DNA of 13,789 nt from a virus (Duplodnaviria > Heunggongvirae > Uroviricota > Caudoviricetes): the IMG/VR virus record IMGVR_UViG_2568526722_000003, positions 1-13,789 of that record. One strand, written 5' to 3'. Of this stretch, positions 1 to 13,789 are shown in pieces. Positions within the stretch are counted from its first letter, which is position 1. The number at the start of each line of letters is the position of its first letter. Made by a program: the position numbers and the translations under genes. The notes beneath the pieces are model-generated. The model saw nothing but the letters and a program-made list of their open reading frames with translations. It searched no databases and was not told the origin of the DNA.

Positions 1-161
1 TTTAACCAGGCCGTAACGCATTTGCATGCTATTGATTAGCCCGGTTGGCCCTAAACGGCGTATACTCAGGTAACGAGATACATTATCAGCAGTAAGCGAA
101 GAAGGCAGACCGCGCGCCGAGATCTCGATAAAGTCAATGTTTCCGTACAGGCATAGCGTCC

Positions 162-557
162 TCACATTTCATAGGTAATGACATAAGTCAGATCGGCTGA
201 ACTCCACAGGCCCGCATCATCGTCGCGCCGGTAGTCATAGCCGCTGGCCACCATACTGGTGATCAAATCTGACAGTGCCGGGATATCGCTCATCACCGGA
301 TAAATCCGGGACTCCATCCACGCATCCAGCTCTGAATCCGGCACCTGAGCAGGCAGGAAAACTTCGATATGCAGCTCCGCCTGCCAGGTATCGCTGTCCA
401 GCTCTTCGCCCGTGTATTCAGCGCCGGTGAGATAAACGGCAACTGCCGGAAAATCCGCCTCATCAAAAACAGCGGGGCGACCATCAAAAAACGTCGCCCC
501 GGTGTCATGCTTCTCCAGTGCATCCAGTACGGCTGCACGGAGTTCAGTATGTTTCAT
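162..557 (-). CDS. U: Minor tail protein U (lambda gpU), 131 aa
   Basis: Translation MKHTELRAAVLDALEKHDTGATFFDGRPAVFDEADFPAVAVYLTGAEYTGEELDSD... matches lambda gpU over full length as recalled; ATG start; 4-nt overlap with Z stop. Confidence 0.93.
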   Translation of the reverse strand: MKHTELRAAVLDALEKHDTGATFFDGRPAVFDEADFPAVAVYLTGAEYTGEELDSDTWQAELHIEVFLPAQVPDSELDAWMESRIYPVMSDIPALSDLITSMVASGYDYRRDDDAGLWSSADLTYVITYEM

Positions 558-1132
558 CGCTTTATTACCATCCTCAGTTGATGCTGCAGCGCATAGCCCA
601 GCTCTTTCGGAAGACGTTCACGCCGTATCCGTTCAATATTCTGTTTAAACGCCGTGGTCAGCGGCACCGCCATCGGGATTTTCACCACATCAATGGGGTA
701 ACGGTTTTTCCCGGCCACACGCTGCATAACATGCCACCGGCCGTTTTTCAGTTGCTGAATAAACGCGCCGGGAATACGACGGTTACCCACCACAAGCACA
801 CTGCCGCCACCTTTCAGGGCTGAACGCTGCCCCTTTTTACGACGCCTGCGTCGGGACAGGACAACCCGCGCGTTACCCAGCTTTATTACGGGCAAATCCC
901 CCCGGTTAACCTTGATTCTGGCCTGCGGATTTTTGACCGTGGCCCTTTTCAGCCTGGCCCTTTCCTTTACCAGTTTCCGGCGTACCTTTGTCTCACGGGC
1001 AACCTGTACCACCGACTGCGATATCGCGGATGAAGCAACGCGGTTAATGGCCATTGCGGCGGCACCGGGCACCGCCGTTCTGCTGATACGGCTGAGGTTT
1101 TCAACGGCCTGCTCAAGACCTTTTATGGCCAT
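554..1132 (-). CDS. Z: Tail completion protein Z (lambda gpZ), 192 aa
   Basis: Translation MAIKGLEQAVENLSRISRTAVPGAAAMAINRV... matches lambda gpZ as recalled; ATG at 1130-1132; lambda order FI-FII-Z-U preserved. Confidence 0.93.
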   Translation of the reverse strand: MAIKGLEQAVENLSRISRTAVPGAAAMAINRVASSAISQSVVQVARETKVRRKLVKERARLKRATVKNPQARIKVNRGDLPVIKLGNARVVLSRRRRRKKGQRSALKGGGSVLVVGNRRIPGAFIQQLKNGRWHVMQRVAGKNRYPIDVVKIPMAVPLTTAFKQNIERIRRERLPKELGYALQHQLRMVIKR

Positions 1133-1143
1133 ACATCCCCCTT

Positions 1144-1497
1144 TCAGCGGCGACGGTTAACGGCAGGCGGTACGCCCCGCCCAAGCCAGAGATGACAGCT
1201 TCCGCCATCATCCGGCGAAATCCGGTCTATCCAGAAGTTTTCCTCACCGATGGTCAGCGTGTCGCCGCGCCGCAGCTGCCGCACATCATCAGTCCGGACA
1301 AACAGGGACGGGCTGGAGCCTTCAACGCGCACGCCCTGTCCGGCATAGCTGATATTTTCAGGGTCATCAAAAACACCACGTATCACAGCACCGGACTGCT
1401 CACCGGATGTCATGGTGGCTGACGTTCCCATGTACCCGCGTATCGTTTCATCGGCGCAGGCAATGGCAGCATCGAACAGGTTATCGAAATCAGCCAC
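1144..1497 (-). CDS. FII: Head-tail joining protein FII (lambda gpFII), 117 aa
   Basis: Translation (M)ADFDNLFDAAIACADETIRGYMGTSATMTSGEQSG... matches lambda gpFII as recalled; start codon here is GTG, preceded by GGGAGG 6 nt upstream. Confidence 0.92.
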   Translation of the reverse strand: MADFDNLFDAAIACADETIRGYMGTSATMTSGEQSGAVIRGVFDDPENISYAGQGVRVEGSSPSLFVRTDDVRQLRRGDTLTIGEENFWIDRISPDDGGSCHLWLGRGVPPAVNRRR

Positions 1498-1508
1498 AGC
1501 GCCTCCCG

Positions 1509-1907
1509 TTATTGCATTCTGGCCAGGCCGCGCTCTGTCATTTCGGCTGCCACACCGGCAGAGACACGAAACGCCGTTCCCGGCAGCACAAATGCCACAG
1601 GTTCATCCCGCGTGGCGTGAAGTGCATCAGTATGCAGCTTCACCAGTGCCACGACCGTGACCAGTTCAGACGTATCCAGAATCACGGTATCCGGCTGCGC
1701 TGATCCCACCTCATTTTCATGTCCGGTCAGCACATTTTCCCGGCTGAGAGGGGTGTCCTGACCGGCAGTTTCATCCGTGTCATCAAGCTCCTCTTCCAGC
1801 TCTGCCACACGGAGCGCCAGTTCTTCTTTCGTCCCCGTCAGGCTGACATCACGGTTCAGTTGTTCACCCAGCGAGCGGAGACGGGCAATCAGTTCATCTT
1901 TCGTCAT
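1509..1907 (-). CDS. FI: DNA-packaging/head assembly protein FI (lambda gpFI), 132 aa
   Basis: The track ORF (1509..1946) contains MTKDELIARLRSLGEQLNRDVSLTGTKEELALRVAELEEELDDTDE..., the lambda gpFI sequence as recalled; real start is the ATG at 1905-1907 with GGAGGA Shine-Dalgarno; the upstream 13 codons are read-through of intergenic sequence. Confidence 0.9.
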   Translation of the reverse strand: MTKDELIARLRSLGEQLNRDVSLTGTKEELALRVAELEEELDDTDETAGQDTPLSRENVLTGHENEVGSAQPDTVILDTSELVTVVALVKLHTDALHATRDEPVAFVLPGTAFRVSAGVAAEMTERGLARMQ

Positions 1908-1948
1908 GGACTCCTCCACAGAGAAACAATGGCCCCGAAGGGCCATGA

Positions 1949-2046
1949 TTACGCCAGTTGTACGGACACGAACTCATCAGGGTCAGCCAGCAGCATCAGC
2001 GGTGCTGACTGAATCATGGTGAACTCACGCGCCGGATCCGCCAGAT
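1949..2046 (-). pseudogene. E: C-terminal remnant of major capsid gene E (last ~24 codons ...FTMIQSAPLMLLADPDEFVSVQLA*)
   Basis: Minus-strand frame just upstream of FI encodes FTMIQSAPLMLLADPDEFVSVQLA-stop, recalled as the gpE C-terminus; homology stops upstream where sequence switches to Nu1. Confidence 0.5.
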
Positions 2047-2202
2047 TTCGGCATACCATTTTATGACGGCGGCAGAGTCATAAAGCACCTCATTACCCTT
2101 GCCACCGCCTCGCAGAACGGGCATTCCCTGTTCCTGCCAGTTCTGAATGGTACGGATACTCGCACCGAAAATGTCAGCCAGCTGCTTTTTGTTGACTTCC
2201 AT
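2014..2202 (-). pseudogene. nu1: Terminase small subunit Nu1, N-terminal 52 codons only, fused to foreign tail (IWRIRRVSSP*)
   Basis: MEVNKKQLADIFGASIRTIQNWQEQGMPVLRGGGKGNEVLYDSAAVIKWYAE matches lambda Nu1 residues 1-52 as recalled; the next 10 codons are not Nu1 and run into the gene E remnant; junction around 2040-2047. Confidence 0.85.
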
Positions 2203-2379
2203 TGTTCATTCCACGGCCAAAAACAGAGAAAGGAAACGACAAAGGCCCAAAAGCTCGTTTTCAGCACCTGTCGTTTCCTTTCTTTTCAGGGGGTATTTTA
2301 AATAAAAACATTAAGTTACGACGAAGAAGAACGGAAACACCTTAAACCGGAAAATTTTCATAAATAGCAAAAACCCGCG

Positions 2380-2391
2380 AGGTCGCCGCCC
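2380..2391 (-). other. cos: cos site: 12-nt lambda cohesive end GGGCGGCGACCT (cosN core), with cosB/Nu1 leader on one side and lambda right-end sequence on the other
   Basis: Minus strand reads ...CCGGCGATCCGACAGGTTACG|GGGCGGCGACCT|CGCGGGTTTTTGCTATTTATGAAAATTTTCCGGTTTAAGG..., matching the joined lambda right and left ends as recalled; lies about 180 nt upstream of the Nu1 start. Confidence 0.85.
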
Positions 2392-2590
2392 CGTAACCTG
2401 TCGGATCGCCGGAAAGGACCCGCAAAATGATAATAATTATCATCTGCATGTCACAACGTGCATCTACGCCATCAAACCACGTCAAATAATCAATTATGAC
2501 GCAGGTATCATATTAATTGATCTGCATCAACTTAACGTAAAAACAACTTCAGACAATACAAATCAGCGACACTGAATACGGGACAACCTC

Positions 2591-2824
2591 ATGTCAACGA
2601 AGAACAGAACCCGCAGAACAACAACCCGCAACATCCGCTTTCCTAACCAAATGATTGAACAAATTAACATCGCTCTTGATCAAAAAGGGTCTGGGAACTT
2701 CTCAGCCTGGGTCATTGAAGCCTGCCGCCGAAGACTGTGCTCAGAAAAAAGAGTTTCGCCTGAAGCAAACAAAGAAAAGAGTGACATTACTGAATTGCTC
2801 AGAAAGCAGGTCAGACCAGATTGA
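2591..2824 (+). CDS. Small ribbon-helix-helix-like DNA-binding protein (77 aa), possibly YlcI/DUF3950-like
   Basis: ATG ORF; basic N-terminal tail (KNRTRRTTTR), then predicted beta-strand NIRFP and two helices (NQMIEQINIALDQ / FSAWVIEACRRRL), typical RHH topology; AT-rich; the family name is from memory and unverified. Confidence 0.55.
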   Translation: MSTKNRTRRTTTRNIRFPNQMIEQINIALDQKGSGNFSAWVIEACRRRLCSEKRVSPEANKEKSDITELLRKQVRPD

Positions 2825-2881
2825 AGCAATTTAGATAATCGTGCAGACTAGGTACCCTCATATCACATGGAAGGTACTACA

Positions 2882-3292
2882 ATGGCTCAGGTTGCCATTT
2901 TTAAACAAATATTCGATAAAGTGCGAAATAATTTAAACTATCACTGGTTTTATTCTGAACTAAAACGTCACAATGTCTCACATTACATTTACTATTTAGC
3001 CACAGAGAATATTCATCTTGTTCTTGAAAACGATAATACGGTTTTAATAAAAGGACAGGGTAAGGTTGTAAATGTAAGATTTTCAAAAAATAAATGCCTT
3101 ATAGAAGCCACATTAAAAGGATTCAAATCAGGAGAGTTATCATTTTACGAATACAGGAAAAATCTTGCTACAGCAGGGGTTTTCAGATGGATTACAAATA
3201 TCCACGAAAACAAAAGGTATTACTATACCTTTGATAATTCATTACTCTTTACTGAGAACATTCAGAACACTACACAAATATTTCCGCACTAA
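2882..3292 (+). CDS. AT-rich hypothetical protein (~137 aa), possibly DUF1398/YbcV-like moron
   Basis: Uninterrupted ORF; ATG at 2882 has a GGAAGG Shine-Dalgarno 7 nt upstream (the track start at 2867 has none); strongly AT-rich codon usage unlike the flanking phage genes; the family assignment is a recollection. Confidence 0.55.
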
Positions 3293-3337
3293 ATCATAAC
3301 GTCCGGTTTCTTCCGTGCCAGAACCGGACTCGCTGGC

Positions 3338-3502
3338 ATGATGAAATATGTGTACCCGGTAACCCCGGTGTGCATCGTTTTTGATTATTCCCGCACACTC
3401 GCGCAGAAGGAGTTCCCCGTCGGGCTACGGTCTCTGTTAATACGGGAATACGGCGACGATACAGCGCATGATGTGTCAGGCTTGAATACCTTTATCCTTT
3501 AA
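3338..3502 (+). CDS. Possible small ORF, 54 aa (MMKYVYPVTPVCIVFDYSRTLAQKEFPVGLRSLLIREYGDDTAHDVSGLNTFIL)
   Basis: ATG-initiated ORF just under the 60-aa track cutoff; sits between a stem-loop (3301-3329) and hairpin element A; no clear Shine-Dalgarno. Confidence 0.2.
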   Translation: MMKYVYPVTPVCIVFDYSRTLAQKEFPVGLRSLLIREYGDDTAHDVSGLNTFIL

Positions 3503-3970
3503 AAGGGATATCAGTTAAGTTATCCCGTGTAGGGTATAAGCCATTATCAAAGCCACTCTGTAGGGAATGGCTTTTGTGATGGCATCACTTACTCTTTACG
3601 CTGCTATCCCACTCATCCCGGAATTTTGATGGGTTATTGAAACCTTCTGCTGACATAACAACTCCTTCAATGTTTGGCTGAAATTAGGATGTCTTTCCAT
3701 CAGTCCGCCACCACAAAGAATCTTTTTTGCCATAAGGCAGGAGGTTCATCTTTCAGTGGCTGCCGGTGTTATTTCCCCACTTACTGGCTTGGGTTGTTTC
3801 GTGGTACTGCCGTTAACTGGTGGCGCACAGATTTAGTTAAATCCGTTCTCGCCTGAACTATCTTTTACATACCCGGATTGTGGGGATGTAAATCACGGTT
3901 TCATTATCAAGCCCACCAGTAGATGGGCTTTGTAATGAAGAGTTGTTATGAAAATTGCTCTAAACAAGCA

Positions 3971-4459
3971 TTAATAGCCATCAGAAGTAATCGCTACAGA
4001 TTTCAATCCCTCAATGTCATCCTTGGACAGGGCGAACCATTCACCGTGCTTTCTCTTTGCGGCAAATTTGCGATGAAGCATGTTTTCAGTTTCTCTTCCA
4101 CCAGGGATCAGGCACTCAAGCTTCAAGCAGTCTGGTCCAGAGTTGCCAAGCGATTTGATGCGTTGTGGAATGTTGGATGAATACCCAATTTTGGTTAGCC
4201 CAGTTTTCTTCGATGACAAAACGTATACCTGAGGAGGTTCTTTTCTCTGGTCTTCCATTACACGTCTCATTGTTGCCATAAGTCCGCCGTGCATCAGCAT
4301 TTCAACAAAGAACGCTGACCGAACACCTGACGACTTAAGCATGCCAGAAAATTCACTTGCCAATTCCATTAACTCTGCGATGTTTTCAGGAACTTTTTGG
4401 CAGTTATCTTCCTTGTATAAGGAAATCATTCTTTGAAGCTTTTCTTCTAATTGGTTCAT
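3971..4459 (-). CDS. T5orf172 / GIY-YIG-like domain protein (~162 aa) with an unrecognised N-terminal region
   Basis: C-terminal half (VYVLSSKKTGLTKIGYSSNIPQRIKSLGNSGPDCLKLECLIPGGRETENMLHRKFAAKRKHGEWFALSKDDIEGL) fits the T5orf172/MUG113 pattern (YVYxL...KIG.T.N..RR...L...E..LH..F...R..GEWF); the track start at 4495 is GTG, the first ATG is at 4457-4459 (MNQLEEK...). Confidence 0.6.
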   Translation of the reverse strand: MNQLEEKLQRMISLYKEDNCQKVPENIAELMELASEFSGMLKSSGVRSAFFVEMLMHGGLMATMRRVMEDQRKEPPQVYVLSSKKTGLTKIGYSSNIPQRIKSLGNSGPDCLKLECLIPGGRETENMLHRKFAAKRKHGEWFALSKDDIEGLKSVAITSDGY

Positions 4460-4608
4460 AGCGTCTTTACCTTTTAGAAAGTGAGCCTGTCTCACAGAAA
4501 AGCCGCCCCGAGATGGTCGCCACCATATACGGCAGTTCTCAGGCTCAACTTTCTGAAAGGCTCGGGTGATGTAATATGCGCGTGAGATGCGCTGTGAAAT
4601 TCAGATGT

Positions 4609-4632
4609 AAAAAAAGCCCCGCATCGCGAGGC
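4609..4632 (-). terminator. Rho-independent terminator downstream of Rz/Rz1
   Basis: Minus strand GCCTCGCGATGCGGGGC (7-bp GC-rich stem with one G-U pair, 3-nt loop) followed by TTTTTTT, about 30 nt after the Rz stop. Confidence 0.6.
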
Positions 4633-4664
4633 TCATTAAATGGACTTTGTGATTTGCAAAAAAA

Positions 4665-5123
4665 TTATTTCAGGCATTGCGTCCTGATGTATTCCTGCAG
4701 GTAGTTAACCTGCGCGGTTATCTTGTCGATTCCACTTCGGAGACGGTAATAATTGAGTTCAGCATCTGCTGTAAGTCCTGGGCTTTCTCCATCGCCCATG
4801 CCGCTGGCTCCGGTCGTTGACTTTGCACAGGTGGCGGCGACTTGCAGGCGCTTACGCCCAGCAGAAACATCAGCACGGAGACTTTCGATAGTCGCGTTAG
4901 CATCAGCAAGCTCCTTTGTGTATCTTGCGTCGAGTTCTGCTACATCACGTTGACGCTTCCGCATGTCAGCGATGGTGGCGTTCGCCTTCTCCAGTTCACT
5001 GGCCTTGTTATCGCGCTGCTCTTTGTAGGCGATTGCGTTATCACGGTAATGATTAACAGCCCATGACAGGCAGACGATGATGCAGATACCCGGCACTACC
5101 TGCTGAGGTGCCATAGGCGACAC
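4665..5123 (-). CDS. Rz: Spanin inner-membrane subunit Rz (i-spanin), N-terminus chimeric
   Basis: From [19 protein letters not shown]...KELADA... onward resembles lambda Rz as recalled; the first ~12 codons (from a GTG start) are encoded within the holin stub in another frame. Confidence 0.7.
4718..4903 (-). CDS. Rz1: Spanin outer-membrane lipoprotein Rz1 (o-spanin), embedded in Rz in the +1 frame
   Basis: [36 protein letters not shown]...: signal peptide with lipobox (LGVSAC) followed by a proline-rich region, wholly inside Rz as in lambda Rz/Rz1; ATG at 4901-4903. Confidence 0.7.
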
Positions 5124-5151
5124 CCGTTGTTAACTTATCCATGGATTTCAT
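5059..5151 (-). pseudogene. Holin remnant: first ~22 codons of a phage-21/DLP12 EssD-type holin ([22 protein letters not shown]), then out-of-frame read into Rz and stop
   Basis: ATG at 5149-5151 with GAGGTG Shine-Dalgarno; N-terminus matches S21/EssD as recalled; after ~22 codons the sequence continues as Rz in another frame; no endolysin ORF lies between holin and Rz. Confidence 0.65.
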
Positions 5152-5260
5152 AACCCCACCTCGCAGACAAAGCGGGTGTAAATTGAGGGAATACTACGAA
5201 ACGTAACAGACTCGGAGTCAGTGAATAACTCAGGTATTGGGTTATCAGCTAATATCGAGA

Positions 5261-5296
5261 CTCAAAAAATGGAAAAACCCACTCGACGGCGGGTTT
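5261..5296 (-). terminator. Candidate intrinsic terminator on the late-operon strand upstream of the holin stub
   Basis: Minus strand AAACCC-gccgtcgagt-GGGTTT followed by TTCCATTTTTTGAG. Confidence 0.3.
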
Positions 5297-5724
5297 AAGC
5301 TGTGTGACGAAGTAACCACTCTTAACAGCATAACCAATTTTTTACGTACGTAAACCACTAAATGATATTTGCGAGAATGCTACCGAGTATTGAAAACACC
5401 ACTACAAATACATAAGCAAATCTCAACAAATAACCAACAAATAATTCCCAGTGTTATTTTTAGCCGATTTAAATTGAACCTTCAAATCATAGAGCACTTA
5501 TAAATAACAACCGTTAATATAAATTGGCTAATAGATTTATTTTTATTCAGCCAAGAGCCATGAATAGGATTCGATAGAAAAAAGTTCAGATAAAAATAGA
5601 GATCTACTTCACAAATCAAACGAGAAACCAAAACTTACATCTTGAAATAATCATATTGATTAGATGAATATTTATCGCGCAGTGACATCATTTTTTAATA
5701 ATAGTTCAAAAAAAAGGGCTCACG

Positions 5725-6822
5725 ATGAAAAAATTAACAGTGGCAATTTCTGCTGTAGCTGCATCAGTACTGATGGCGATGTCTGCTCAGGCAGCTGAAA
5801 TTTATAATAAAGACAGTAACAAGCTGGATCTGTACGGGAAAGTTAATGCTAAGCACTACTTCTCCTCTAATGATGCAGATGATGGTGATACTACTTATGC
5901 CCGTCTTGGCTTCAAAGGTGAAACCCAAATCAACGATCAACTGACTGGTTTCGGTCAGTGGGAATATGAATTCAAAGGCAACCGCGCTGAATCTCAAGGT
6001 TCCTCCAAAGATAAAACCCGTCTTGCCTTCGCTGGCCTGAAATTCGGTGACTACGGCTCCATCGATTACGGCCGTAACTACGGTGTAGCATACGACATCG
6101 GTGCGTGGACTGACGTTCTGCCAGAATTCGGTGGCGATACCTGGACCCAAACAGATGTGTTCATGACTGGTCGCACCACTGGTGTTGCAACCTATCGTAA
6201 CAACGACTTCTTTGGTCTGGTTGATGGTCTGAACTTTGCTGCTCAGTACCAAGGCAAAAACGATCGTAGCGATTTCGATAACTACACCGAAGGTAACGGT
6301 GATGGCTTCGGTTTCTCTGCTACCTATGAATACGAAGGATTCGGTATCGGTGCAACTTATGCGAAATCTGATCGTACCGACACTCAAGTTAATGCAGGGA
6401 AAGTTCTTCCTGAAGTATTTGCTTCCGGTAAAAATGCAGAAGTTTGGGCCGCAGGTCTGAAATATGACGCTAACAACATTTACCTGGCCACTACCTATTC
6501 TGAAACCCAGAATATGACTGTATTTGCTGATCACTTCGTTGCTAATAAAGCTCAAAACTTCGAAGCTGTTGCACAATATCAGTTCGATTTCGGTCTGCGT
6601 CCGTCCGTTGCTTACCTGCAATCTAAAGGTAAGGATCTTGGAGTATGGGGCGATCAGGACTTAGTCAAATATGTTGATGTAGGTGCAACCTATTACTTCA
6701 ACAAAAATATGTCTACTTTCGTTGATTACAAAATCAACCTGCTTGACAAAAATGACTTCACTAAAGCACTCGGTGTAAGCACTGATGACATCGTTGCTGT
6801 AGGTCTGGTTTACCAGTTCTAA
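5725..6822 (+). CDS. nmpC: OmpC-family outer-membrane porin (NmpC / phage Lc type), 365 aa, intact
   Basis: Signal peptide [23 protein letters not shown]|AEIYNKD, porin motifs and C-terminal ...VAVGLVYQF; full-length and uninterrupted; opposite orientation to Q and the lysis genes, as for DLP12 nmpC and PA-2 lc. Confidence 0.9.
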
Positions 6823-6830
6823 TCTGATTA

Positions 6831-6872
6831 CGAAAAAGATATGTTGCGGGAGGCTTTGCCTCCCCAACATAT
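6831..6872 (-). terminator. Candidate late terminator (tR'-like) downstream of Q on the minus strand
   Basis: Minus strand ATATGTTGGGGAGGC-aaag-GCCTCCCGCAACATAT (about 15-bp stem) followed by CTTTTTCG; about 140 nt downstream of the Q stop. Confidence 0.45.
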
Positions 6873-6960
6873 AAGTGGCTCCCTCAAGCCACTTCCTTTA
6901 GGAGCACAACCTTGCTTCTAACTATATAAACCTTCTGTTATATATTACCCTTTATTTTTG

Positions 6961-6990
6961 GGGGCGTTGCAACGCCCCATTTTTAATAAT
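6961..6990 (+). terminator. Rho-independent terminator for the porin gene; perfect 18-bp palindrome
   Basis: GGGGCGTTGCAACGCCCC followed by ATTTTTAATAATTTTT on the plus strand. Confidence 0.5.
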
Positions 6991-7011
6991 TTTTAGTAAA
7001 CAACTGGCATA

Positions 7012-7395
7012 TTAATTAGAGTTATTAACAACGATATCCATCTCTAACCGGATATCTAATGCCATTAACATCCCTTCAATTATGCCCTCAGCCTTCTGTA
7101 ACCTTTTCCCGATATAACCATCAGAGCAGCAATGCTTACCTGCCAGTGACATGAATGTCATACCGACTACATAATAATCTACTAATAAATCGTGCAAATC
7201 GCTGTTGTTCTTTTTCAGACGGGCCATGCACCCGCAAATAATCATCGCGTCATCGTCACAACATTGCGGGCGAGATTTTACTTTTGAAGTAATTAATCCC
7301 TTAAAACCGGCGGCAATGGACGACCAGGTCACATCTTCATGATTATTAGCCGCCCACGCTCCCCAACGCTCAAGAACCATCTGAATATCACGCAT
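7012..7395 (-). CDS. Q: Late-gene antiterminator Q, phage 21/82 (DLP12 QuuD) type, 127 aa
   Basis: [34 protein letters not shown]...[16 protein letters not shown]... matches DLP12-type Q as recalled; ATG at 7393-7395 (the track start at 7410 is TTG). Confidence 0.85.
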
Positions 7396-7480
7396 CAACT
7401 TACTCCACAAAAATCAGGCCAGAACGCCAATTACAAGCAAAAATCAACAAAACAGTATTAGTTGATTGTTATCTCTGACT

Positions 7481-7621
7481 TCATACTCCTGCTCCTGTCA
7501 GGGTTTTGGCGTAATTCTTCAGTATTCGGTAATCGGTCAAAACAGAACCGGGGGAACGATATAAGCGCAGACGCCCCCAGCGGTGGCGAAGAAGTTCTGC
7601 CATATTAAACTCAAACATCAT
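7481..7621 (-). CDS. ylcG: Small protein YlcG-like (46 aa)
   Basis: Hand-translated [49 protein letters not shown]; its ATG overlaps the rusA stop (ATGA); matches DLP12 YlcG as recalled; below the track size cutoff. Confidence 0.6.
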
Positions 7622-7980
7622 TCATTCCCCATTTCGGTGATGGTCAGTTCCAGCCTCCCACCTTTGGTAACAGGCATCTTCACAACGCGGTAATCAACGA
7701 CCTGAGCATCATCCAGCCAGAAACCTGCTTTAGTGAGTGCGTCAAAAGCGGCTTTTTGCAGATTATCCAGGTCACGGCGACGGCGATCCGGCATGTGGCA
7801 CTCAATGCGGATTTTCACAGGCATAGCCAGGCCGATATCCAGCATTGCGTTTTTAATGATTCGGGCGACGTTATCGCGGTATGCCTGCCCCTCTGCGCTG
7901 ACGTGCGTGCGCCCTCGATTATGGCGGTAGTAGCGGTTATTGCTCGGCGGCCAGGGTAGTGTGATGTGGTAAGTATTCAC
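7618..7980 (-). CDS. rusA: Holliday-junction resolvase RusA, 120 aa
   Basis: (M)[37 protein letters not shown]...[28 protein letters not shown]... matches RusA as recalled; GTG start overlapping the upstream stop (GTGA). Confidence 0.93.
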
Positions 7981-8066
7981 GCCTTAATTACCCCCTCTTT
8001 CAGCCAGATAACCTGCGTTCTCGCCATACCTTCCAGCGCGCATTCTTTTGCATATGCAGCATCGAC
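7977..8066 (-). pseudogene. ybcO: C-terminal remnant of a YbcO-like (DUF1364) gene, about 29 codons
   Basis: Frame ending ...[29 protein letters not shown] with the stop overlapping the rusA start; matches the YbcO C-terminus as recalled; further upstream the frame hits a stop and no N-terminal YbcO-like sequence appears in any frame. Confidence 0.4.
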
Positions 8067-9231: not shown

Positions 9232-9737
9232 GCAGCTCGATCTCCCCATCTCGCTTTCCACTCCAGAGCCAGTCTCGCTTCGTCTGACCACTTAACGCCA
9301 CGCTCTGTACCGAATGCCTGTATAAGCTCTAATAGCTCCGCAAATTCGTTTACACGCATCCTGCTGGTTGACTGGCCTATTACCACAAAGCCATTCCCGG
9401 CAAGGTTAGGAACAACATCCTGCTGCTTTAATGCTGCGGTAAACACACACTTCCAGCTTTCTGCATCCAGCCAGCGACCATGCCATTCAACCTGACGAGA
9501 GACGTCACCAAGGCAAGCCCAAAGCTTTCGATTCTGGTCTAAGCTGCGGTTGCGTTCCTGAATGGTTACTACGATTGGTTTGGTTGGGTCTGGAAGAATT
9601 TGCTGTAACCGCCCTATTCTCTCGCTGAATCGCAAACCGAAATCACGAGTAGAAAGCGCACTGAATCCGATAGACCTTACGGTGCTGGCTGAATACCACG
9701 AACAGATTGAAAGCAACCTGCAACGTATTGAGCGCAA
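9228..9737 (-). CDS. ninB: Recombination protein NinB (Orf), C-terminal ~125 aa lambda-like, N-terminal ~44 codons atypical with no canonical start
   Basis: From QQILPDPTKPIVVTIQERNRSLDQNRKLWACLGDVSRQVEWHGRWLDAESWKCVFTAALKQQ... to the stop matches lambda NinB as recalled; the preceding 44 codons do not, and the track start is a TTG. Confidence 0.65.
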   Translation of the reverse strand: MRSIRCRLLSICSWYSASTVRSIGFSALSTRDFGLRFSERIGRLQQILPDPTKPIVVTIQERNRSLDQNRKLWACLGDVSRQVEWHGRWLDAESWKCVFTAALKQQDVVPNLAGNGFVVIGQSTSRMRVNEFAELLELIQAFGTERGVKWSDEARLALEWKARWGDRAA

Positions 9738-9839: not shown

Positions 9840-10169
9840 ATGAAGAAAATTGATTACAAGTCCATACCAAAACCAATAGACTCAGCATCAGAGCGAAAAA
9901 AACACAAAAAAGAGGCTGAAAAATTAGCAAATTATATCAGTTTTATTAGAAACAATGCTCACGGCGATGGCGACAGGAAGTTGCTTTCAGATGCCCGGAC
10001 CCAAGCGTTCAGTATACTTCGTAAGCAGATGCAATATCGTCTTCATCCAGGCTACATAATTGAAATTCGCCCGACTGAAAGACAATTGTTCTTATTAAAC
10101 TCTGTCTTTGACTTTGTAAACGTAGTTGGAGATCTTATCGACAGGTCTGTAGATAAGGCTCCTGGGTGA
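9840..10169 (+). CDS. AT-rich hypothetical protein, 3' end cut by IS1 (stop supplied by the IS1 left end)
   Basis: ORF MKKIDYKSIPKPIDSASERKKHKKEAEKLANYISFIRNNAHGDGDRKLLSDARTQAFSILRKQMQYRLHPGYIIEIRPTERQLFLLNSVFDFVNVVGDLIDRSVDKAPG*; ATG at 9840 with GAGG 8 nt upstream; low GC; the last codons and stop (GG TGA) are IS1 sequence; no family recognised. Confidence 0.45.
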   Translation: MKKIDYKSIPKPIDSASERKKHKKEAEKLANYISFIRNNAHGDGDRKLLSDARTQAFSILRKQMQYRLHPGYIIEIRPTERQLFLLNSVFDFVNVVGDLIDRSVDKAPG

Positions 10170-10219
10170 TGCTGCCAACTTACTGATTTAGTGTATGATG
10201 GTGTTTTTGAGGTGCTCCA

Positions 10220-10495
10220 GTGGCTTCTGTTTCTATCAGCTGTCCCTCCTGTTCAGCTACTGACGGGGTGGTGCGTAACGGCAAAAGCACCGCCGGACAT
10301 CAGCGCTATCTCTGCTCTCACTGCCGTAAAACATGGCAACTGCAGTTCACTTACACCGCTTCTCAACCCGGTACGCACCAGAAAATCATTGATATGGCCA
10401 TGAATGGCGTTGGATGCCGGGCAACTGCCCGCATTATGGGCGTTGGCCTCAACACGATTTTACGTCACTTAAAAAACTCAGGCCGCAGTCGGTAA
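10220..10495 (+). CDS. insA: IS1 InsA (transposition inhibitor / transposase N-terminal part), 91 aa
   Basis: [43 protein letters not shown]... matches IS1 InsA. Confidence 0.95.
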
Positions 10496-10917
10496 CCTCG
10501 CGCATACAGCCGGGCAGTGACGTCATCGTCTGCGCGGAAATGGACGAACAGTGGGGCTATGTCGGGGCTAAATCGCGCCAGCGCTGGCTGTTTTACGCGT
10601 ATGACAGTCTCCGGAAGACGGTTGTTGCGCACGTATTCGGTGAGCGCACTATGGCGACGCTGGGGCGTCTTATGAGCCTGCTGTCACCCTTTGACGTGGT
10701 GATATGGATGACGGATGGCTGGCCGCTGTATGAATCCCGCCTGAAGGGAAAGCTGCACGTAATCAGCAAGCGATATACGCAGCGAATTGAGCGGCATAAC
10801 CTGAATCTGAGGCAGCACCTGGCACGGCTGGGACGGAAGTCGCTGTCGTTCTCAAAATCGGTGGAGCTGCATGACAAAGTCATCGGGCATTATCTGAACA
10901 TAAAACACTATCAATAA
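10414..10917 (+). CDS. insB: IS1 InsB' frame (transposase catalytic part, expressed as InsAB' by -1 frameshift)
   Basis: ...[72 protein letters not shown]... matches IS1 InsB. Confidence 0.93.
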
Positions 10918-11042
10918 GTTGGAGTCATTACCAGAAAGCAGGTCTTTCTCTCGTGTAGAGATAAGCGAGTCAGAGTTATGGGGTATATCAAATAATCCTG
11001 TAAACCACGCTCACCAACGAAATCCAAACAAAAAGTGGTCAT

Positions 11043-11600: not shown

Positions 11601-11672
11601 GCGCGGCGTTACCGCATACCAATAACGCTTCACTCGAGGCGTTTTTCGTTATGTATAAATAAGGAGCACACC

Positions 11673-11837
11673 ATGCAATATGCCATTGCAGGGTGGCCTG
11701 TTGCTGGCTGCCCTTCCGAATCTTTACTTGAACGAATCACCCGTAAATTACGTGACGGATGGAAACGCCTTATCGACATACTTAATCAGCCAGGAGTCCC
11801 AAAAAATGGATCAAACACTTATGGCTATCCAGACTAA
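11673..11837 (+). CDS. cIII: CIII (FtsH/HflB protease inhibitor), 54 aa
   Basis: Hand-translated [54 protein letters not shown] matches lambda CIII; AAGGAG Shine-Dalgarno upstream; the track merged it with kil. Confidence 0.9.
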   Translation: MQYAIAGWPVAGCPSESLLERITRKLRDGWKRLIDILNQPGVPKNGSNTYGYPD

Positions 11838-12024: not shown

Positions 12025-12321
12025 ATGAACGCTTATTACATTCAGGATCGTCTTGAGGCTCAGAGCTGGGCGCGTCACTACCAGCAGATCGCCCGTGAAG
12101 AGAAAGAGGCAGAACTGGCAGACGACATGGAAAAAGGCCTGCCCCAGCACCTGTTTGAATCGCTATGCATCGATCATTTGCAACGCCACGGGGCCAGCAA
12201 AAAAGCCATTACCCGTGCGTTTGATGACGATGTTGAGTTTCAGGAGCGCATGGCAGAACACATCCGGTACATGGTTGAAACCATTGCTCACCACCAAGTT
12301 GATATTGATTCAGAGGTATAA
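12025..12321 (+). CDS. gam: Gam (RecBCD inhibitor), GamS form, 98 aa
   Basis: [98 protein letters not shown] matches lambda Gam. Confidence 0.93.
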
Positions 12322-12326
12322 AACGG

Positions 12327-13112
12327 ATGAGTACAGCACTCGCAACGCTGGCAGGGAAGCTGGCTGAACGTGTCGGCATGGATTCTGTCGACCCACAGGA
12401 ACTGATCACCACTCTTCGCCAGACGGCATTTAAAGGTGATGCCAGCGATGCGCAGTTCATCGCATTGTTGATCGTCGCCAACCAGTACGGCCTTAATCCG
12501 TGGACGAAAGAAATTTACGCCTTCCCTGATAAGCAGAACGGCATCGTTCCGGTGGTGGGCGTTGATGGCTGGTCCCGCATCATCAATGAAAACCAGCAGT
12601 TTGATGGCATGGACTTTGAGCAGGACAATGAATCCTGTACATGCCGGATTTACCGCAAGGACCGTAATCATCCGATCTGCGTTACCGAATGGATGGATGA
12701 ATGCCGCCGCGAACCATTCAAAACTCGCGAAGGCAGAGAAATCACGGGGCCGTGGCAGTCGCATCCCAAACGGATGTTACGGCATAAAGCCATGATTCAG
12801 TGTGCCCGTCTGGCCTTCGGATTTGCTGGTATCTATGACAAGGATGAAGCCGAGCGCATTGTCGAAAATACTGCATACACTGCAGAACGTCAGCCAGAAC
12901 GCGACATCACTCCGGTTAACGATGAAACCATGCAGGAGATTAACACTCTGCTGATCGCCCTGGATAAAACATGGGATGACGACTTATTGCCGCTCTGTTC
13001 CCAGATATTTCGCCGCGACATTCGCGCATCGTCAGAACTGACACAGGCCGAAGCAGTGAAAGCTCTTGGATTCCTGAAACAGAAAGCCACTGAGCAGAAG
13101 GTGGCAGCATGA
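12327..13112 (+). CDS. bet: Bet (Red-beta single-strand annealing recombinase), 261 aa
   Basis: Full-length match to lambda Bet ([44 protein letters not shown]...). Confidence 0.96.
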
Positions 13113-13789
13113 TACCGGACATTATCCTGCAGCGTACCGGGATCGACGTGAGAGCTGTCGAACAGGGGGATGATGCATGGCACAAATTACGGCTCGGCGT
13201 CATCACCGCTTCAGAAGTTCACAACGTGATAGCAAAGCCCCGCTCAGGAAAGAAGTGGCCTGACATGAAAATGTCCTACTTCCACACCCTGCTGGCTGAG
13301 GTTTGCACCGGTGTGGCTCCGGAAGTTAATGCTAAGGCGCTGGCCTGGGGAAAACAGTACGAGAACGACGCCAGAACCCTGTTTGAATTCACTTCCGGCG
13401 TGAATGTTACTGAATCCCCGATCATCTATCGCGACGAAAATATGCGCACTGCCTGCTCTCCCGATGGTTTATGCAGTGACGGCAACGGCCTTGAACTGAA
13501 ATGCCCGTTTACCTCCCGGGATTTCATGAAATTCCGGCTCGGTGGTTTCGAGGCAATAAAATCGGCTTACATGGCCCAGGTGCAGTACAGCATGTGGGTG
13601 ACGCGAAAAGATGCCTGGTACTTTGCCAACTATGACCCGCGCATGAAGCGTGAAGGCCTGCATTATGTCGTGATTGAGCGGAATGAAAAGTACATGGCGA
13701 GTTTTGACGAGATGGTGCCGGAGTTCATCGAAAAAATGGACGAGGCACTGGCTGAAATTGGTTTTGTATTTGGGGAGCAATGGCGATGA
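13109..13789 (+). CDS. exo: Exo (Red-alpha 5'-3' exonuclease), 226 aa
   Basis: Full-length match to lambda Exo ([40 protein letters not shown]...GFVFGEQWR*); ATGA overlap with bet; the stop codon is the last 3 nt of the window. Confidence 0.96.

Follow-up and report, generated by a model that had tools for sequence, protein, structure and literature searches.

The window analysed here, which is the whole 13,789-nt stretch of the viral record IMGVR_UViG_2568526722_000003, contains at positions 1900–2210 the two extremities of a lambda-like packaging and head module lying almost next to each other. This raises the question of how the genes normally found between them were lost, and of whether what remains is of any use to the element or its host. 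In all likelihood, what is seen here is a scar of decay in a defective lambdoid prophage of the DLP12 type, located at argU of E. coli, where the head and packaging module went through an illegitimate loss that left two junctions. The scar itself serves no function. The features considered are the following, with the basis for each assignment.

145–154, minus strand: stub of V, its first 10 nt (ATGCCTGTAC), from the alignment to lambda 8955 onward and to CUPF09
162–557, minus strand: U, intact, with 132 of 132 amino acids identical to lambda
554–1132, minus strand: Z, intact, with 189 of 193 amino acids identical to lambda
1144–1497, minus strand: FII, intact, with 113 of 118 amino acids identical to lambda
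1509–1907, minus strand: FI, intact and annotated as such, with 132 of 133 amino acids identical to lambda
1929–1946, minus strand: native hairpin of the E–FI spacer (ATGGCCCCGAAGGGCCAT), from the sequence, the predicted fold and the identity to lambda
1949–2038, minus strand: 3' remnant of the major capsid gene E, codons 313–341 and TAA, from megablast, manual register and PGAP
2014–2202, minus strand: 62-aa open reading frame left by the scar, from the ORF list, with the frame taken from the junction coordinates
2037–2047, minus strand: 11-nt island AATCTGGCGGA, corresponding to lambda E 6432–6442, from exact matches in lambda and in the E genes of other prophages
2047–2202, minus strand: stub of Nu1 (small terminase), codons 1–52, from the alignment to lambda, phmmer and the PGAP pseudogene call
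2203–2391, minus strand: right part of cos, from comparison with the circularised lambda cos region

Window positions 2202–2047 (minus strand) align with lambda 191–346, which corresponds to Nu1 codons 1–52. When one further base is included (window 2202 to 2046, lambda 191–347), the aligned stretch shown contains no mismatches, and the identity then ends abruptly. On the other side of the joint, window positions 2038 to 1949 correspond to lambda 7071–7160, that is, the last 29 codons of E followed by its stop (TAA at 1949–1951), and the flank from window position 2036 onward has no mismatches to lambda over its first 240 nt. A megablast search of positions 1400–2600 against phage records returned lambda 7068–7709 (the end of E, FI and the start of FII) at 99.4% identity and phage 434 at 99.8%. 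The stub and the remnant are 97–100% identical to lambda (NC_001416, 191–7160), and as near-identity to lambda extends over hundreds of bases on each side, a chance resemblance is excluded. The E remnant lacks a start codon and stands in a different frame from Nu1; the full-length 341-codon gpE reading frame with its own start is absent, codons 313–341 and 11 nt from the middle of the gene being what remains of it. Both pieces are labelled as pseudogenes by RefSeq PGAP, the Nu1 stub as “DNA-packaging protein, missing C-terminus” (156 nt) and the E remnant as “hypothetical protein, missing N-terminus” (90 nt).

Lambda 191–7160 spans 6,970 nt, in place of which the window has 254 nt, giving a net loss of 6,716 bp. 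The same net loss is obtained by comparison with the near-intact argU prophage of EM18-18-42, from which 6,719 nt are missing, less 3 unaligned bases. Relative to lambda, the missing part comprises Nu1 codons 53–181, A, W, B, C/Nu3, D, and E codons 1–312 with the exception of the 11-nt island. The initial annotation had Nu1 codons 1–52 joined directly to the last ~24 codons of E, with the loss of the rest of Nu1, A, B, C, Nu3, D and most of E put at about 7 kb. The 52 codons, the presence of the E 3' end and the list of lost genes all stand, but the E remnant amounts to 29 codons and a stop, the loss to 6,716 bp, and the joint is not direct, since the 11 nt from mid-E lie between the two stubs. 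Its reading of the locus as a deletion scar is backed both by the alignments to lambda and to lambdoid prophages and by the RefSeq pseudogene annotation of the two stubs. The alternative it had named, a naturally short Nu1 without E sequence downstream, does not agree with the alignments to lambda and intact lambdoid prophages.

The element carrying the scar has, on the minus strand, the order U, Z, FII, FI, E fragment, Nu1 fragment, cos, ylcI-type genes and Rz. Beyond Rz there is a porin gene on the plus strand, then quuD, rusA and nin genes, with IS1 and cIII/kil/gam/bet/exo on the plus strand. A megablast search of the whole window against 5,426 complete E. coli genomes gave 100% coverage and 99.9% identity in two O9:H10 pig isolates, in which the element sits between argU tRNA/fimZ and appY-ompT-envY. 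In strain 13P484A, argU/fimZ borders it on one side, and the near-intact relative in EM18-18-42 is found at the same argU site. The window ends short of the prophage ends; the site is taken from genomes matching at 99.9–100%. The interval from argU/fimZ to appY-ompT-envY is where the cryptic prophage DLP12 resides, and 74% of 638 strains surveyed carry a prophage there (PMC6379469).

In common with DLP12 of K-12, the element has the argU site and a late region with quuD, rusA, ylcG, a porin gene, Rz, ylcI and a Nu1 homologue, and both are defective through multiple deletions and IS insertions. DLP12 of K-12 presumably has a full-length Nu1 homologue (nohD), a fragment of A joined to tail-fibre genes and a porin gene (nmpC) disrupted by IS5. 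Here, by contrast, Nu1 ends at codon 52 and no A remains, while the lambda-like genes FI to U, the red genes (gam, bet, exo) and an intact porin reading frame survive. The defects consist of the loss of the head module, of cI-cro-O-P (at about 9606–9612), of S-R (at about 5083–5088) and of everything from V onward (at 145), together with a truncated int in the matching genomes. The features of a cos-type PICI were not found: according to the annotation names in the matching genomes, the integrase is truncated, no replication module, rpp or alpA is annotated, and only lambdoid genes are present. The sequence shows that the locus has no genes for the large terminase, W, the portal, the protease/scaffold, D or a working capsid protein, and from what is known of lambda biology the element would be unable to make proheads, cut cos or package DNA by itself.

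Read in phage sense, the junction is ...TGGTATGCCGAAA TCTGGCGG ATCCGGCGCGTGAG..., in which the middle eight bases, TCTGGCGG, agree neither with Nu1 (...GAAAGGGATG) nor with distal E, which reads ...CACCGGCGATCC in lambda, EM18-18-42 and CUPF09 and ...ACATCCGGCGATCC in LC-1302-2020 and MS 196-1. The island was discovered because the ungapped registers against lambda are offset by one base at the joint. The 11-nt AATCTGGCGGA has a single exact match in lambda 1–8000, on the sense strand and within E, where 0.01 would be expected from dinucleotide shuffles, and it is present in the E gene of all four other prophage references. The context of the mid-E match in lambda is CAGAATCTGGCGGACCCGGC, and ATCTGGCGG is found in every reference E gene, at lambda 6433. 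Bases 2045–2039 (TCTGGCG) are of mid-E origin only. In lambda positions, the structure of the scar is Nu1(191–347) / E(6432–6442) / E(7073–7160). About 0.5 (0.47) occurrences of the eight bases unique to the joint are expected by chance in 8 kb when both strands are counted, and since this 8-mer is not rare, the argument for the island rests on the 11-nt match and on its sense-strand position in E.

Each of the two junctions is accompanied by a short microhomology. At junction A, 6,086 bp were lost and the microhomology is AA (Nu1 346–347 and E 6432–6433, window 2047–2046). At junction B, 630 bp were lost and it is GA (E 6441–6442 and 7071–7072, window 2038–2037), within the imperfect direct repeat GGCGGACCCGGC / GGCG-ATCCGGC. 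The crossover of junction B can be placed exactly, since only mid-E has the G at 2038 and only distal E the T at 2036. The initial annotation had proposed looking for microhomology at 2040–2047, which turned up the AA at 2047–2046, and the GA at 2038–2037 comes in addition to it. Neither breakpoint has an IS end, an att or cos site, or a repeat longer than 12 nt. No IS terminus abuts the joint, which connects phage sequence to phage sequence, the nearest IS being the IS1 at 10165–10932, 8 kb away.

No natural allele of E was found to explain the junction bases among the matches listed out of 3,382 matching genomes, the best of which differ at three positions including a gap. Likewise, none of the intact E genes listed carries the bases next to the junction, and coverage of the junction query reaches 80% in the 11 genomes with the scar and in no others. 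Intermediates containing only junction A or only junction B were found neither in the 5,426 complete E. coli genomes, using synthetic 120-nt queries, nor in IMG/VR, using exact patterns. The sole match covering an intermediate query in full, from H154, turned out to be an intact E gene, the two halves of which had been merged by the tool.

The anatomy of the junctions points to an illegitimate deletion of the short-homology class. In such a scheme, illegitimate recombination without long homology would have taken out 6,716 bp of packaging and head genes by two breaks and joins, one removing 6,086 bp between Nu1 and mid-E and the other 630 bp inside E. These could have been two successive deletions, or a single replication event with two template switches, and the scar would then have been passed on by vertical descent within a small lineage of E. 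coli. The two further scars of the window (5083–5088 and 9606–9612) similarly have 2 nt of perfect microhomology beside imperfect matches. The same combination of 2-nt microhomology, an imperfect repeat and a short retained island is seen in the short-homology or template-switch “complex” deletions of bacteria, and nothing sets the present case apart from them.

Could the joint have been produced in a simpler way, by one deletion from Nu1 347 to E ~7064 followed by two point changes (a C to T change and an inserted G) which happen to mimic mid-E? The eight bases at the joint are by themselves not rare, as calculated above, and the intact E genes of MS 196-1 and LC-1302-2020 read GACATCCGGCG-ATCC, only three positions away from the GAAATCTGGCGGATCC of the window. 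This would however require two mutations within 8 nt, while the neighbouring 240 nt (compared with lambda) to 646 nt (compared with CUPF09) carry none, and the mutated string would by accident have to coincide with 11 nt of the very same gene, for which the expectation is the 0.01 given above. Furthermore, the CCCGGC downstream of the mid-E copy also resembles the distal TCCGGC. A one-step deletion with later point changes is possible, yet less economical than two junctions, and we regard it as quite improbable. It is somewhat easier to imagine, while still unlikely, that the joint formed between two different lambdoid genomes, for example a DLP12-type resident and either a second prophage or a phage resembling lambda/434. 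The two flanks do differ in their nearest relatives. On the left, identity is 100% to EM18-18-42 over 1,955 nt, 97.4% to lambda and 91% to CUPF09. For the right flank, there are no mismatches to CUPF09 in 646 nt and one to lambda in 578 nt, with 99.8% identity to phage 434 and 97.1% to EM18-18-42, and no single reference is identical on both flanks. However, the FII–Z part of the right flank switches relatives again, and as lambdoid genomes are mosaic in general, a mosaic boundary near the scar is not diagnostic; ordinary lambdoid mosaicism accounts for the differing relatives equally well. A joint between two genomes would in any case leave the outcome, the loss of the head module, unchanged, and the mid-E island would still demand a second junction.

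The joint also contains a BamHI site, GGATCC at 2034–2039 (context CGGATCCG), located exactly on junction B, which is what one might expect of a linker in a laboratory construct or of an artefact. The site is fully accounted for by the joining of mid-E ...GGCGGA to distal-E TCCGG..., which makes it a coincidental by-product. No vector sequence is found nearby according to the annotations of the matching genomes, and the junction occurs in natural isolates (the 11 complete genomes) and in two IMG/VR contigs. This distribution effectively refutes the idea of a construct, to which we attach next to no probability, and the presence of the same 101-nt junction in 11 independent complete genomes and two IMG/VR contigs excludes an assembly artefact.

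Among the 5,426 complete E. coli genomes, 11 carry the exact 101-nt junction, each at 100% identity. The isolates carrying it came from pigs, chicken, humans and a frog, the countries given for two of them being Hong Kong and Canada. The metagenome contigs and species-representative genomes scanned contain no exact copy. In 13P484A, the scar is accompanied by a further loss of prophage sequence next to IS1, which indicates that the scar predates that loss. A comparable case with another outcome is the prophage of E. coli MRE162, which is located at the same site, has the same ylcI-cos-Nu1 left flank and also has its head module in stubs. The stubs themselves differ (L003, 6399–8270), as they comprise 180 nt of Nu1, an 897-nt portal fragment, 123 nt of E and a truncated FI joined to a fragment of J. 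Since the breakpoints differ at the same site, decay of the head module has set in independently at least twice among argU prophages.

Besides the head scar, at least four other decay events are present in the window: the loss of S-R, the loss between ninB and N, the insertion of IS1 and the truncation of V. At 5083–5088, 676 bp are missing compared with EM18-18-42, including most of essD (holin) and rrrD (lysozyme), and the essD stub abuts an Rz-type gene (4665–5123, minus strand) with TA microhomology and imperfect ACCAG matches alongside. At 9606–9612, where ninB is joined to a truncated N, the loss amounts to 4,261 bp relative to EM18-18-42 and comprises ren, P, O, cII, cro and the repressor gene cI, i.e. 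the whole immunity and replication region. The IS1 copy at 10165–10932 (768 bp, with the insA/insB reading frames at 10220–10917) stands in place of 433 bp of EM18-18-42. An O9:H10 genome, in other respects matching the window, is 292 bp longer to the right of IS1, indicating that deletions adjacent to IS1 are ongoing in this lineage.

Other parts of the window have been preserved. The genes cIII, kil, gam, bet and exo (12025–13789) are all intact in this otherwise heavily degraded prophage, and an Rfam scan of the whole window gave a sole match, to Lambda_thermo (the cIII mRNA thermoregulator), at 11660–11718 on the plus strand (88.5 bits, full-length). An intact porin gene of the OmpC/NmpC type (365 aa) is located at 5725–6822 on the plus strand, between the lysis region and quuD. 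The 174-aa reading frame at 3971–4495 (minus strand), between cos and the lysis genes, is annotated as a member of the GIY-YIG nuclease family in matching genomes and is cargo of this type of prophage.

Downstream of the head scar in phage sense, FI, FII, Z and U are full-length, have no internal stops and are 96–100% identical to the lambda proteins, in line with the initial annotation, according to which they had been kept. The next gene, V, is reduced to its first 10 nt; past ATGCCTGTAC the sequence is unrelated, everything from V codon 4 onward is missing, and the BLAST alignment to EM18-18-42 ends at window position 145. FI to U is the 1.75-kb block remaining between two deletions, the head scar and the V scar. 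Bases 1–144 are unlike V and resemble sequence near a tail-fibre-type gene, with 100% identity in 13P484A and 92% in an O9:H10 strain. From the roles these proteins have in lambda, FI, FII, Z and U would be useless alone and have no role without their missing partners, and the fact that they are intact suggests that the deletions are evolutionarily recent.

The palindrome which had been pointed out in the E–FI spacer is indeed present at 1929–1946. In phage sense it forms a hairpin, AUGGCCC-UUCG-GGGCCAU, with a 7-bp stem and a UUCG loop, and is found in both the MFE and the centroid folds, although its 76-nt context is not more stable than shuffled sequences (z = -0.42). It is identical to the E–FI spacer of lambda itself, and was rejected as a feature of the scar.

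The remaining question is whether the stub of Nu1 could be of use where it stands. It corresponds to residues 1–52 of gpNu1, the winged-HTH domain binding cosB, and is identical to lambda. A phmmer search matched it over residues 1–52 to PDB 7LW0 (56 aa) and 1J9I (68 aa) with E-values of about 1e-31, the printed alignment to 7LW0 showing 52 of 52 identical residues. The final few residues of the solved DNA-binding domain are lacking. In lambda, gpNu1 has 181 aa and includes a central oligomerisation domain and a C-terminal domain binding TerL (PMC9026076); as the Nu1 sequence stops at codon 52, both are absent here. The 62-aa reading frame left by the scar consists of the 52 Nu1 residues and 10 out-of-frame codons (IWRIRRVSSP) running across the island and the E remnant to a stop at 2014. 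The cos region beside it is 96% identical (478 of 500 nt) to that of circularised lambda, and exactly so at cosN and its flanks, with the cohesive-end sequence GGGCGGCGACCT at 2391 to 2380. Despite the absence of the terminase genes, the cosB region (2203–2379), lying between cosN and the start of Nu1, is also nearly identical to lambda.

One could imagine from this that the scar has been kept for use, the 62-aa product acting as a stand-alone Nu1 domain which binds cosB and thereby hinders the packaging of incoming lambda-like phages, or marks the locus for a helper terminase. The stub is equal to residues 1–52 of the gpNu1 domain constructs which were crystallised or solved by NMR (56 and 68 residues), cosN and cosB are preserved, and the start region of the reading frame is the same as in lambda in the aligned stretch. 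If this were true, the stub would be a putative decoy lowering the packaging of superinfecting lambda-like phages, which we hold to be highly improbable; it is just as doubtful that, alternatively, cos could let the terminase of a helper phage start packaging the adjacent chromosome. Against a useful stub, the late operon upstream of it is broken, with S-R deleted, and the product would lack the end of the solved domain while having the 10-residue tail added. Moreover, the isolated DNA-binding domain of gpNu1 reportedly binds specific and non-specific DNA about equally (PMC9026076). The 11 genomes are all identical across the 101-nt junction query, other lineages have quite different scars, and nothing in the data points to expression or selection. 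A use of this kind therefore has very little to recommend it, and the Nu1 stub is a pseudogene fragment and no terminase subunit. The nearly complete cosB-binding domain next to an intact cos is only a mild curiosity of the locus.

Taken as the decay scar of a DLP12-type prophage, the locus is a textbook case of ordinary prophage decay, which genome annotation had already flagged. What is added here is limited to the resolution at the level of the base, namely the composite structure of the scar, the 11-nt mid-E island and the 2-nt microhomologies. The finding matters little in itself and opens no new question, while offering a clean, base-resolved example of a lambdoid prophage losing its morphogenesis genes piecewise, in which the 11-nt island reveals that an apparently single 6.7-kb deletion took two joins. 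The junction, found in 11 of 5,426 complete genomes, is a possible marker for a small lineage of E. coli, and the locus illustrates that a prophage may have apparently intact FI, FII, Z and U genes without this being a sign that they function.
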